IMG/VR virus record: IMGVR_UViG_3300031548_000003
Coordinates: 9,521 to 73,520 of that record
From: a virus
Taxonomy: Duplodnaviria; Caudoviricetes
Reading direction: 5' to 3' (one strand)
Length of the DNA: 64,000 bases
Below the pieces are notes generated by a model. The model made no database searches and was not told the DNA's origin. It saw nothing but the letters and a program-made list of their open reading frames with translations. Positions 9,993-41,528 of the stretch are shown here, piece after piece; positions within the stretch are counted from its first letter, which is position 1; each line of letters opens with the position of its first letter. The translations under genes were made by a program, and so were the position numbers.

Positions 9993-12900
9993 TTAATCTA
10001 TTGAAAATCCTAAATTCCTAAGTGCAGTTTCTAATTTCAAAACCTTTTCCGTAAGCCTGTAAAAATTATTCCTTATCGCAGCCGCATCGTTGGCATAAAT
10101 TGTTAAGTCACTGTAGTCGGAGATTGTACTAAGCGATCCTCCGCTAGTCACATTGTTTACTAAAATCGTGTTTACCGATTGTTGACCTACAGGGGGTGCA
10201 TTGAAGAATCCTAATTGTTTTACTCCACCAGATTCAATAGCTTCGATCAGATTCGTTCCTCCGTCTTCTTGAACAACAAACAGATTTTGATTTGCTGATG
10301 TTCCTTTTAAATGAAATTGATATGTAGGCGTAAGAGTACCTAAACCATGCAGTCCAGATGAAGAGATAAAGGCATAATTATTACCAGCAATTGTGCCAAC
10401 AGTAGGATTCCAAACGAAACCTATTGCATTACCAGAAACATATGTAAGGGTTGGGGTGGCTAATACTGCTGTTATGCCACCAGTAGCTGATGAATTTGAA
10501 AAGGAGCCTGTTAGTCTAAGAAGGTTTATACTATAGCTACCTGTAGCAGCACTGAAAGATGGGGCTTCTAAACTAACGACAGTACCAGTTCCGGTAGTAT
10601 TATTATTTGTCGAAGCTGATGTAGTAAGCATTACTGCTGTTTGTGTTCCCGATGTAAGTTCCCCAGCTATTTTTAGGGTAGGCCCTCCTGCTGTTACTGT
10701 ACCGCTACTGTTACTAGGGGCTATCCTTGTATTTGTAGATGTACCAAAAAAAAGAGTCCCATCGTTTCTGAACCGATAAAGGTCTGTTCCACTACTTTGC
10801 AATGACAAAATAGTAGAGAATGTTCCTGTGAATCCGCCTGCTGTAAAAGATGGATTTATGCGGACTGCGGATCCTACTTGGTTATTAGCTCCGTATATAA
10901 TCGAGGGACTAAAATCAAAGCCATAAATATTATCCGAAGTTGTCCCTCTAGCAGTTATAGAAGGATTAAAAATAGTATGGTATTGATTGTTAGCTGTTGC
11001 CGTCCAACTACCTCCCCACGAATTCCCGTTGCCTGCTGATGTTATTGAGACAACACCGTTATCCAATATTTTGAATCTTTCAGTGCCGCCATTATCTTTC
11101 CAAACAGCGTTAATACCAGTTGTCGTTCCTATACCCCATTGCTCGAATCGTGTTGTAGCAGCTCCTAAAGTTGTATTTCCTATAAGAACAGAACCAGAAG
11201 TGCCACGTAATGCAATGTGTGTTAATCCTGTAGTGCTTGTAATTGTTGGATTTATATCTACATCAATTGCAGTTCCTGAATAGGTAGCAGTTGTATTATA
11301 ACTGGGCGTTATTGTCAATGCTCTAAATGTAGCCGATCCAGATGTTGGATTAAATTGCCCAGGCGCAATGCTAAAAGCTGTTCCGGTTGTAGTAGACGCA
11401 GAAGTTGTGAAAGAGGATGCGCCAGTATTATCAATTGTTGATAACTGTATTCCTGCATCATTATGCAAATGAAGAATACTTCCACCGCTTACACCCCATA
11501 TTTCGACCCTTGGCGATCCTGTTACACTCGCACCACTCGGTGCGAATAATGATACGCCTTGAAAGTAAGGATTACCCACCAACGTAGGGGCAGTGATAGT
11601 CGTGCTGCCAGATGTAGCCCAATACGGAGCCGTGCCAGTTATAAGAGAATTAAAATTAGTCCATGATGGAGTAGCTAGCCATGTGTCTATACCTGTACCT
11701 AATGAGGATAAGCCAGTACCTCCATTAGCTGCCGCAAGTATTGAACTCCCCACTGCACCAGAGCTTGCTAAGTCTATTGAACCAAAGTCAATTGATGTAC
11801 CTGATCTGCGTATAATATTACCATCTGAAGCGGCTACTATTTCAGCAAAGTTTCCAGAAGTATTAGGTGATCTTCCTAATACAGATAGACCTGCCGCTGA
11901 GTTTTGAATCTTAGCGAATGTAATAACTGAATTATCAACCGTCCAGGTTGCTCCACCACCGCTTACAGTGATATCTCCGTAATCGCCATCGGATACTCCG
12001 GTAATAGAGGAAGCAGCTCTATATTTAATAAGTCCTGTTACGTCTCTTACTAAGATTTGAGTAAGTGCGTCATCATTTGAGAGAGTGCTGGATATATTTA
12101 AGCTAGCTGCGGTTGTGAGTCCAGTGGAAGTCAGAGTGGTTGCTGTTAGTGCTACGACTCCAGTAACATTATTAGAATCATCAATTATGATTCCGGAATT
12201 TTGAATTGCATTCCCACTTGTTCCATTCCATCTGGCAATGGCGTTATTAGTAGAAGACCCAGGTCCTGATACATCGCCGGGTGTTACAGGCGTAGTCCAA
12301 ACAGGTGAACCCCCTACTATAGTAAGGTGCTGCCCGTTTGTTCCAGCAGATAATTGAGTTGGAGTACCCGATGTGTTACCAACAAAAATAGCATTATAAG
12401 CTAATGAATTGTTTAGCTTATTCTCCAATTGGGTCTGAATAGACGATGTTACCCCATTTACGTAGCCTAGCTCTGTTGAGGTCAAGCCGGTTGCACTTAA
12501 TCCTGTCAGGATGTTTACATCATCTACATCAGCGGTTACATCAGTTACTTTATCAAGCGTTAGTGTTGTCCAATCTACATCGAAGTCAGTTCCGCTTAGT
12601 TTAGCGAGATATTGCCCTGTTGTACCTCCAATAGGTACACCATTGATTGTAGGAGTACTCCATTGAATACTGGAACCGGTAGAGTATAACGCTTGTCCAC
12701 TCGTACCTCTGGGTAAATTAGTCCATGCACTCCCATTGTAATAAATAATATCACCATCCGCTACAGGCCCCAAACTTGTTGATAGCCTGGCGTTTAGTTG
12801 AGTTTGAGCATCAGAAGTTAATGTTGATATATATCCAAGTTGAGTAGTTCCTACTGATGATGACGCAAGTTTACCTGAGCCATTAGTTACGGCTACAATG

Positions 12901-39990: not shown

Positions 39991-40045
39991 CCTCTCAATA
40001 TCTATGCCGAAATTTAGTTAATTTTTAGTAACTTCAGTTCTTAGA

Positions 40046-40134
40046 GTTGGTAGAAACAGTACCAAGAGAATCGCCACTCTTTTATGACACAAAGTCATTT
40101 TGGTTTTACCGATATGCCGAATTACACTACCAAC
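40046..40134 (-). ncRNA. Structured element D (89 nt)
   Basis: 8-bp terminal inverted repeat gttggtag / ctaccaac enclosing hairpins ATGAC/GTCAT and AAGAG/CTCTT. Confidence 0.45.
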
Positions 40135-40147
40135 CTAAAAACTTTCA

Positions 40148-40318
40148 ATTATTCTACCTAGTTTCGCCCCCTGTATCCCCAGCTATCCACTTTATCAGTG
40201 TGGTGCTAAGAAGATGTTTAAGGTACGCCTTAACGACACTTGCTGATGTGGAGGTGTACCTAAGACCGTTTTAGCCTTCATCCAACAAGTTTGAGGGAGC
40301 CATCCCTATAAGAATAAT
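40148..40318 (-). ncRNA. Structured element C (171 nt)
   Basis: 8-bp terminal inverted repeat attattct / agaataat; internal GGGA/TCCC, AGGTAC/GTACCT and CCAC/GTGG helices; begins 3 nt after tRNA-Thr. Confidence 0.5.
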
Positions 40319-40321
40319 CTG

Positions 40322-40394
40322 AGCACCATCGTGGATTCGAACCACGTTCTTCCCGTCTACAAGACAGGGCTTCACCATTCAAAGCTTATGGTAC
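40322..40394 (-). tRNA. trnT: tRNA-Thr(UGU), slightly atypical
   Basis: Acceptor GTACCAT/ATGGTGC; anticodon arm CCTGT-CTTGTAG-ACGGG; T arm CGTGG-TTCGAAT-CCACG. D-arm junction non-canonical; no encoded CCA. Confidence 0.7.
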
Positions 40395-40399
40395 TTTTG

Positions 40400-40577
40400 C
40401 GAACGAGACAGGATTCGAACCTGTAAACCACACATGCTATTCAGGTTTTTATGCCTGAATAATATCAGTTATTACAATCCAGTACCTTATAGGCATATGA
40501 TACTACTTAGCTGGTATCGATCTGCGGTTACAACTGTTTGCTTTTAAAATAGCGTCTACCAATTCCGCCACTCGTCC
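40400..40577 (-). tRNA. tRNA-Leu-like gene interrupted by a 90-nt insert (40458-40547)
   Basis: Acceptor GGACGAG/CTCGTTC, Leu-type D arm TGGCGGAATTGGTAGACGC, T arm ACAGG-TTCGAAT-CCTGT; 178 nt in total. Confidence 0.7.
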
Positions 40578-40581
40578 ATAA

Positions 40582-40816
40582 AAAACTAACTTGTCCATTT
40601 CCAAGTGGAATACCTGCTTTTACAACTTGCTAGTTTGGCTAACACCATAATCTGTTGATGATCATGAGGTATCTTACAATAAACATCATCCTCTTGGCAG
40701 GAATGTAACATTGGAAGCTATTTTGACACCATTAAATAGAGTTTAACTCCATATAACCGCTTCTCGGGACTAACCAATCAGTCAATGCTACTGTTTATCT
40801 TCAGCAAGTTAGTTTT
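40582..40816 (-). ncRNA. Structured element B (235 nt)
   Basis: 12-bp terminal inverted repeat aaaactaacttg / caagttagtttt; internal hairpins GACTGA/TTAGTC, GTTAG/CTAGC and a CCTGC/GCAGG helix; G-U pairs favour the minus strand. Confidence 0.55.
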
Positions 40817-40823
40817 ATGTTTT

Positions 40824-40962
40824 AAAACATTAGAACAGTAGTTTTGAGTATCCTATCCTACTTAGCTCAGAGACCTTCCAAGATACCATCAACGTTCTCG
40901 TTACCTCACGATAACTGGTTACTGTTGGATTTGAACACAACTCGCCAAGCATCTAATGTTTT
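40824..40962 (-). ncRNA. Structured element A (139 nt)
   Basis: 11-bp terminal inverted repeat aaaacattaga / tctaatgtttt; GTTATC-GTGA-GGTAAC GNRA hairpin, ACAGTA/TACTGT helix, T-loop-like TTCAAAT hairpin. Confidence 0.55.
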
Positions 40963-40963
40963 G

Positions 40964-41036
40964 TGGAACCCTGAGGAATCGAACCTCATTAGCTGAATTT
41001 TCAGTCCAGTGCATACACCACGTCTGCCAGAGTTCC
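40964..41036 (-). tRNA. trnF: tRNA-Phe(GAA)
   Basis: 73-nt cloverleaf: GGAACTC/GGGTTCC, CTGGA-CTGAAAA-TTCAG, TGAGG-TTCGATT-CCTCA. Confidence 0.9.
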
Positions 41037-41528
41037 AGAATTAAACGAGTTTAGGTATTTAAACGTTATATTTAGTTAAAAAGTTTCAGGATCAAACGAG
41101 AAAATAACCCCTTATGTTCCTCACAGTAAGCTTCATTAATATCTTTTAGTATTATTCTACAACTATTACAAATAGCTACAGGACTACCTGAGTTATATTT
41201 TATTAGGGGCTTTATTTTTCGTTTAAATTTCATCATCAAATAGTCTCATATTCCAAATCAAACGAAAAGAAATTCCTCTAAACCAATAATAACCGTCTAC
41301 TTAATTCCCTTTCAAACATCCAGTCAACACAATAACTTCCTCCCTTTTCTGCCCATATCATCTGATCCTCTCCATTTAAATAAACCCTATAAGATATATG
41401 AGGCTCATCTTCGCTATAATTTCCATGTCTACTAGAAGGTATATAAATAGTCTTCTTTTCTACTTCATATCCTAACCTATTAAGGTAGGCTACTTTTTCT
41501 TCAAACGTATAGAATAATGTAATGTGCT

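Follow-up and report, generated by a model that had tools for sequence, protein, structure and literature searches.

A pseudoknotted RNA domain conserved among phages and prophages takes the place of the anticodon arm in tRNA-like genes

Background

What is a gene that has the acceptor stem, the D arm and the T arm of a leucine tRNA, that lies between a tRNA-Phe and a tRNA-Thr gene, and that is 178 nt long, with something other than an anticodon arm at its centre? The gene in question is encoded on the minus strand of a 64,000-nt stretch of viral DNA (termed here the window), which belongs to a 73.5-kb viral contig. Inspection of the sequence had led to an earlier view (termed here the original prediction) that this is a tRNA-Leu-like gene split by a 90-nt structured insert flanked by TATT direct repeats, for which three origins were offered: a tRNA intron of a new, small kind, a mimic or decoy of a tRNA to which a domain has been added, or a small element inserted with a 4-bp target duplication. 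A decaying pseudogene was considered as well.

Phages have long been a source of puzzling RNAs of this general kind: the stable tRNA-like RNAs of phages T4 and T5 have been known for decades and their function is unexplained. Here it is argued, from patterns of conservation and covariation among related loci, that the locus is almost certainly a real gene, that it has no anticodon and carries instead a conserved, pseudoknotted domain (termed here the cargo) within a tRNA-like frame, and that it is not interrupted by an intron.

Results

A leucine-type frame without an anticodon arm

Both the sequence itself and its alignment to the Rfam tRNA model (RF00005) bear out the 178-nt gene with an intact acceptor stem, leucine-type D arm and T arm that had been proposed (Table 1). 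The model spans 40400-40577 with a score of 28.9 bits, which is below the gathering score of 29, and places a 108-nt insertion where the anticodon arm would be; ARAGORN does not call the 178-nt element as a tRNA. Hence, of the features that define a canonical tRNA or a class II tRNA-Leu, the acceptor stem, D arm, T arm and the conserved core nucleotides on which the L-shape depends are present, and the 5-bp anticodon stem, the 7-nt loop, U33 and the anticodon are absent. The U at 40425 occupies the place of U48, and a U precedes the T stem in all of the leucine-type relatives described below. The discriminator base (at 40400) is a G, and CCA is not encoded in the element, as is likewise the case for both of the flanking (genuine) tRNA genes.

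About 385 nt without ORFs lie between tRNA-Phe and the element. Same-strand neighbours of the array include genes for a BT4734-like primase-type protein and a 5'-3' exonuclease, which places the array within an early or replication block; the phage itself probably infects Bacteroidota. Scans for promoters and terminators around the array yielded nothing above chance. The tRNA-Thr(UGU) gene scores 32 bits against the Rfam tRNA model over 40322-40394 (minus strand; gathering score 29), which is low for a genuine tRNA.

The array also contains further ORF-free units on the minus strand. One of these (40962-40824) is closed by a stem, is bordered by tRNA-Phe on one side and by the element on the other, and has a T-arm-like hairpin near its 5' end; it shares the 10-mer AGCUAAGUAG with strand L3 of the cargo, where this likewise comes right after a helix strand, and it is not matched by the covariance model of the cargo core (R1, described below). 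The others are at 40816-40582, 40318-40148 and 40134-40046, and have no match among cultured phages.

Table 1. Features of the RNA gene and of the neighbouring tRNA genes (window coordinates)
Feature	Position	Strand	Basis or remark
Whole RNA gene (leucine-type tRNA frame and cargo domain)	40400..40577	-	Rfam tRNA model; homologues in about 50 loci
Acceptor stem, 5' strand	40571..40577	-	pairs with 40401-40407, 7 of 7 pairs
Leucine-type D arm, with G18 G19 and A14 A15	40552..40568	-	sequence; same D arm in the leucine-type frames of relatives
J1, U- and A-rich single strand between D stem and P1	40537..40551	-	conserved alignment columns; within model R1
P1, 5' strand	40532..40536	-	pairs with 40466-40470; crosses P2
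P2, 5' strand (long-range)	40523..40529	-	pairs with 40426-40432, 7 of 7 paired in the window
P3, 5' strand, with one bulged A	40511..40518	-	pairs with 40476-40482
L3, near-invariant 15-nt single strand, starting CUAAGUA	40496..40510	-	invariant columns (see text)
P4 hairpin, variable loop	40483..40495	-	98.5% paired
J3/1 (GUAAU), P1 3' strand and conserved AUAUU	40461..40475	-	conserved columns
P5, variable peripheral hairpin	40439..40460	-	sequence, length and loop differ in every lineage
J5/2 (AGCAUG), conserved, ending in AUG right before the P2 3' strand	40433..40438	-	alignment
T arm, canonical UUCGAAU loop	40408..40424	-	Rfam alignment and frame comparison
tRNA-Thr(UGU)	40321..40394	-	downstream of the element, 5-nt spacer
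tRNA-Phe(GAA)	40963..41036	-	head of the co-oriented array

The middle of the gene is a single covarying domain

The region between the D arm and the T arm (about 125-127 nt) forms one conserved domain, which consists of five helices (P1-P5) and of near-invariant single strands, and which shows strong covariation. From 5' to 3' its parts are J1, the 5' strand of P1, the 5' strand of P2, P3 (which encloses L3 and P4), GUAAU, the 3' strand of P1, AUAUU, P5, a strand ending in AUG, the 3' strand of P2 and a single U, after which the T stem begins. P2 forms the base of the domain, in the position of an anticodon stem; P3 and P4 are stacked upon each other; and P5 is peripheral. Because P1 crosses P2, the domain is a pseudoknot. 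Searching the window with a covariance model of the core (R1) gives a match of 101 bits (E of about 5e-23) at 40461-40554 and no second copy. The window copy has each of the features that characterize the family as described by R1 together with P2 and P5, namely, the pseudoknot, the bulged P3, P4, an L3 that starts with CUAAGUA and a J5/2 that ends in AUG.

The covariation that the original prediction had suggested looking for is found in P1, P3 and P4. Over 17 distinct sequences, 97.4% of the cells in these three helices are paired and six pairs show changes on both sides; none of 500 shuffled controls is as good, and when the partners are slid by 1-3 columns the strands pair at 21-39%. P3 is 100% paired, with both-side changes in five of its seven pairs, and the second pair of P1 occurs among relatives as AU, UA, CG and GC. 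The P2 strands of 17 relatives comprise 16 different sequences, which pair with their own partners at 6.3 of 7 positions versus 2.9 of 7 when cross-paired between relatives, where the strands were located by fixed anchors and the statistics (like those for P5) come from a custom script rather than from a full structural alignment. The minimum free energy of the single sequence is unremarkable (z = -1.7) and the corresponding structure misses the pseudoknot; hence the support for this fold is comparative rather than thermodynamic.

This structure retains part of the one proposed earlier. Of three helices predicted for the insert, two persist, namely, the first five pairs of the long stem (here P1) and UGCCU/AGGUA (here P4). 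The third, a GAUAC/GUAUC hairpin, falls away: it shows no covariation, is 82% paired, is equalled by 467 of 500 shuffles and competes with the covarying P3. P2, and hence the pseudoknot, was missing from the earlier structure.

Among the single strands, the invariance of L3, and that of the 5' strand of P4, is due partly to selection, because the first search pattern fixed parts of both; the six homologues that were found using a pattern outside L3 still keep both of its ends. An AUG stands directly 5' of the 3' strand of P2 in 22 of 27 relatives. The loop of P5 is often GAAA in relatives, and P5 is absent from loci L010 and L052. These two loci represent a cargo subtype in which AUAUU, P5 and the GGCAUG strand give way to a conserved strand of 11 nt. 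Long invariant single strands within a pseudoknotted fold, as seen in these alignments, are typical of RNAs that build a specific pocket or surface.

Several possible partners of the conserved single strands were considered and rejected. Pairing with, or mimicry of, the 16S, 23S and 5S rRNAs of E. coli is no better than for shuffled sequences. A supposed resemblance to the L11-binding region of 23S rRNA yields no blastn match there at a word size of 7. A supposed resemblance to the tag region of tmRNA did not hold up either; the pairing with the tag would probably not be kept in Pseudomonas, given the tag sequence there.

Homologues in phages and prophages of different hosts

When cultured phages are searched with blastn, the 'insert' of the original prediction matches Proteus phage Brookers (84.6% identity over 88 nt), and the 5' part of the frame together with the insert matches Flavobacterium phage FL-1. 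The matching regions in these two genomes are either unannotated or overlaid by ORFs labelled 'hypothetical protein'. In Brookers (locus L001), the RNA gene is overlapped in its 3' half by gp41 (1546-1698) and at its 5' end by gp42 (1366-1479), both of which probably stem from spurious gene calling.

An exact-pattern scan of viral contigs, for which a 19-nt motif from the most conserved strand served as the pattern, returned 61 loci, about 45 of them true homologues (34 distinct sequences). A second scan, which used a pattern outside L3 and was screened with the covariance model, added six more, and one further copy of the cargo occurs in a human-gut phage record (MT836137). In total, the family in viral contigs amounts to about 50 loci and about 40 distinct sequences. 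A pattern scan of bacterial genomes was swamped by chance matches and gave one true copy, in Pseudomonas defluvii; model R1 detects the cargo in one of the 151 Pseudomonas species genomes searched, and blastn finds no copy in complete E. coli genomes. The host spread is named here from Brookers, FL-1 and the Pseudomonas and Bacteroidota-type phages. The cargo domain is a family of its own, present in phages and prophages of very different hosts.

This family is absent from Rfam 15: at gathering scores none of its models matches the element or its cargo in a search of the whole window, and at relaxed thresholds (E up to 10 for 40000-41400, and E up to 1 for five related loci) the only model to respond is that of tRNA. 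No description of the RNA was found in the literature; it may be among the entries of a catalogue of candidate structured RNAs from viruses (PMC10690425).

One cargo in several frames, and several cargos in one frame

At least three kinds of frame enclose the cargo. One is the leucine-type tRNA frame, another a tRNA-like frame, seen in prophages, whose closing stem is long, and a third a plain stem. Leucine-type frames are seen in the window, in FL-1 and at loci L012, L017, L022, L027, L029, L042 and L052; the discriminator is an A in 8 of 10 such frames and a G in the window and L052. The prophage-type frame is found in Brookers, in proviral contigs that match it fully or nearly so, and in a group of GC-rich copies, that of Pseudomonas defluvii among them, with L244 representing a third group. 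This frame has a covarying closing stem of 20-24 bp and a D loop that is complementary over six bases to its 9-nt T loop. (The complementarity was seen at L001 1447-1650, at L013 5540-5760 on the minus strand, at L193 about 1213-1345 and at L194 about 1098-1243.) Such complementarity would form a loop-loop 'kissing' elbow that replaces the usual corner of a tRNA. In the Proteus-type frame an A and CCA are encoded directly after an 8-bp acceptor stem. Other class II-like frames exist as well (e.g., the L016 group), and at L050 (about 10184-10330, minus strand) the cargo is closed by a plain 7-bp stem plus a mini-hairpin with GAAA; this copy lacks a T arm and lies 22 nt upstream of tRNA-Gln. In a Pseudomonas-type provirus, a weak match to the mascRNA-menRNA model (L013 12103-12155, minus strand; 30 bits versus a gathering score of 42.5) may mark a further element of tRNA-like shape.

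The same frames also carry other cargo. In the same viral genome, 48 kb away and outside the window, lies a sister shell (G000:C1:1878-1983, minus strand; also at L004 1501-1606) whose first 26 and last 26 nt are identical to those of the element and whose middle, of 54 nt, differs; this middle contains CUAAGAA but no anticodon arm, and ARAGORN makes no call. Loci L017 and L022 each have a second leucine-type shell with an unrelated cargo (the two shells of L022 share their acceptor stem), and neither of these second shells is called as a tRNA. Likewise, the prophage-type frame encloses an unrelated cargo in Pseudomonas phages phi2 and PAJU2, and in different Pseudomonas phages this frame carries three unrelated middles. 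Neither the window genome nor any of the roughly 50 related loci contains an uninterrupted or decodable allele. Because the same cargo is found in several frames and the same frames are found with other cargo, frames and cargos recombine; the unit under selection is the cargo.

Genomic context differs with the kind of carrier. In large phages the RNA lies within tRNA arrays. At all five of the prophage loci examined it lies downstream of, at a distance of 0.7-3 kb from, and on the same strand as a gene for a cI/LexA-type repressor, a position that corresponds to the immunity or early-left region. Copies with the long closing stem belong to lambdoid prophages of Proteus and Pseudomonas. Pfam analysis of the neighbours at the five prophage loci and in the window reveals no constant companion gene, the upstream cI-type repressor being the only gene common to the prophage loci; an NYN-domain gene that adjoins the Brookers copy is absent from the Pfam-scanned neighbours of the other prophage loci.

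Discussion

The proposed nature of the RNA

The reading preferred here, to which we give a probability of roughly 0.55, is that the gene specifies a non-decoding, stable RNA that is processed like a tRNA, with the frame serving as a carrier and the cargo as the working part, which acts in trans early in infection. The RNA would be co-transcribed with tRNA-Phe and tRNA-Thr as part of the early or replication block. It would then be excised by RNase P and RNase Z and given its CCA by a host enzyme, as its tRNA shape and the T4 and T5 precedents suggest; the spacers of a few nucleotides within tRNA arrays, together with the complete tRNA frame, point to excision as a separate molecule. In the prophage version the 20-24-bp closing stem may serve as a double-strand cleavage site, possibly the one that is cut first. 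The frame would thus provide processing, stability and perhaps tRNA-like interactions, and the cargo would act in trans by binding a conserved host or phage factor, that is, a protein, an RNA or a small ligand.

It is very improbable that the locus is instead an interrupted tRNA-Leu gene, whether the interruption is a small intron or a mobile element that duplicated 4 bp of its target, or whether the gene is a decaying pseudogene. The arithmetic behind this idea is real: removing 40547-40458 does leave 88 nt, UAUU does occur at both 40551-40548 and 40461-40458, and the loop of P5 contains UAA. However, both copies of the repeat are conserved core sequence, most relatives lack the repeat, and the boundaries that it seemed to give the insert are arbitrary. 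The 7-bp stem and 8-nt loop that had been taken for an anticodon arm are P5, which varies freely, is sometimes absent and has an A where U33 belongs; moreover, the long-range helix P2, which covaries, reaches across the splice junction that was proposed. No segment can be removed from any homologue so as to leave a 5-bp stem with a 7-nt anticodon loop, and the same domain recurs in frames that are not tRNA-Leu-like and in one plain stem. The uninterrupted allele that the original prediction proposed to look for among relatives is absent, as noted above, and so is any empty site, the sister shell being occupied by its own 54-nt cargo. The judgment that the insert is not a group I intron stands: no group I or group II intron model matches 40000-41400 at E up to 10. 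Decay is excluded by conservation at 101 bits across phages of unrelated hosts. What survives of the three origins offered is the tRNA mimic or decoy with an added domain, inasmuch as the frame is intact and its middle is a conserved, covarying domain lacking an anticodon arm.

Two other proposals concern the mode of action. One, which we regard as rather doubtful, is that leucyl-tRNA synthetase aminoacylates the RNA and that the aminoacyl end is what acts, with the cargo providing the targeting; the RNA might then work on the ribosome in the manner of tmRNA, as a donor or decoy for an enzyme that uses aminoacyl-tRNA, or as a trap for enzymes directed against charged tRNA. For E. coli tRNA-Leu the synthetase uses the discriminator A73 and the tertiary core, not the anticodon, and the leucine-type frames keep the A in most cases, the U in the place of U48 in all, a D loop with G18 G19 and a canonical T loop. 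That most of the tRNA-type frames are of the leucine type, which mere processing would not need, hints at such charging, as do the A and CCA encoded by the Proteus-type frame and the precedent of tmRNA, a tRNA-like RNA with an anticodon-blind synthetase. Against this, the window copy itself, like L052, has a discriminator G, the prophage-type frames are not leucine-like, and the L050 copy keeps the cargo without having a T arm; no tag reading frame is present, with neither an ARAGORN tmRNA call nor an Rfam tmRNA match, and the leucine-type features could be an inheritance from a founding tRNA-Leu gene. The other proposal, which is improbable, is an element that acts in cis within an early transcript, on the polymerase or on processing of the operon, as the put RNAs of phage HK022 do. 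This would suit the prophage forms, which are located downstream of the repressor gene in the early-left or immunity region, and PAJU2, in which a promoter-like site about 330 nt after cI precedes a frame of this type. It does not suit the window copy and its many relatives within tRNA arrays, which have spacers of a few nucleotides and a complete tRNA frame, nor does an element serving a single operon in cis need frames that exchange cargo.

Implications

The preferred reading, of a carrier frame and a cargo acting in trans, can be extended to a broader proposal that we offer only tentatively: phages may keep a pool of folded RNA modules that are moved between interchangeable tRNA-like carriers. 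The present domain would be among the most widespread of these and would represent a new class of functional RNA, either a ribozyme or, in the manner of an aptamer, a sponge for a protein or for a molecule of host defence or signalling. It would be supplied at an early stage of infection or, by prophages, from their immunity region.

What the present comparisons add is that a particular cargo makes up a defined family with covariation, which is not confined to one host phylum or one type of frame and which extends to cultured temperate phages: phages of Bacteroidota-type, Flavobacterium, Proteus and Pseudomonas hosts share a single pseudoknotted domain, with hardly a letter changed, within three kinds of carrier. 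The old question posed by the T4 and T5 RNAs thereby becomes testable, since here it is the middle, rather than the tRNA frame, that is the conserved unit; and because Brookers, FL-1 and Pseudomonas prophages carry the RNA, its function can be tested directly in cultured systems. A general design is suggested as well, in that tRNA-like carriers may let phages express exchangeable RNA modules. For genome annotation, the lesson is that tRNA finders skip such genes and that gene callers overlay them with spurious ORFs, as in all likelihood in the Brookers record.

Comparison with known RNAs

Several known systems resemble this RNA in part. The tRNA-Leu(UAA) genes of cyanobacteria and plastids that contain a group I intron are likewise leucine tRNA genes interrupted in mid-gene. 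Their introns are longer than 200 nt, lie within the anticodon loop, have a group I core and leave a normal tRNA after splicing, whereas none of these properties (neither the size nor the anticodon-loop site, the group I core or the spliced tRNA) holds here. In particular, the insert is too short for the P3-P8 core with its guanosine site and its helices are of a different kind, and neither decodable joined exons nor intron-less alleles are found. Nor does the locus resemble an insertion element, for which one expects empty sites and repeats that lie outside conserved sequence. YrlA and other bacterial Y-like RNAs are, like the present RNA, non-coding RNAs with a tRNA-like module, some of them in phages. 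In YrlA, the two termini pair as the Ro-binding stem and the tRNA-like part lies at the far end, whereas the termini of the present RNA form an acceptor stem; the Rfam models for Y-like RNAs do not match it.

The likeness to tmRNA (SsrA) goes further: there, too, a tRNA-like acceptor stem and T arm are combined with a long helix, leading into pseudoknots, that replaces the anticodon arm. The cognate synthetase of tmRNA ignores the anticodon and charges the RNA with alanine. Unlike tmRNA, the present RNA has a full D arm, is about half the size and has leucine-type rather than alanine-type features, and the set of parts that defines a tmRNA (a tag reading frame, resume codon and stop, along with several pseudoknots) is not found in it. 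An engineered counterpart also exists in the 'tRNA scaffold' of Ponchon and Dardel, in which a cargo RNA reportedly replaces the anticodon arm and is processed and stabilised by the cell like a tRNA; here, by contrast, the RNA is natural and its cargo a conserved family.

On present comparisons, the closest known RNAs are T5 RNA1 and T4 species 1 RNA. Like them, the element is encoded within a cluster of phage tRNA genes and has a tRNA-like frame that lacks the anticodon arm. The T4 species 1 and 2 RNAs (rnaC and rnaD) and T5 RNA1 all come from tRNA-cluster genes and have a tRNA-like acceptor stem and T arm, with a structured middle replacing the anticodon arm; T5 RNA1 (AY543070 30501-30644, described as 'tRNA-like stable RNA with unknown functions') has the same build, including a leucine-type D arm. 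The middles of these RNAs are unrelated to the cargo, model R1 finding nothing in the T4 and T5 tRNA regions with its filters off. Unlike them, the cargo described here is a separate and widely spread family, which is carried by prophage frames as well.
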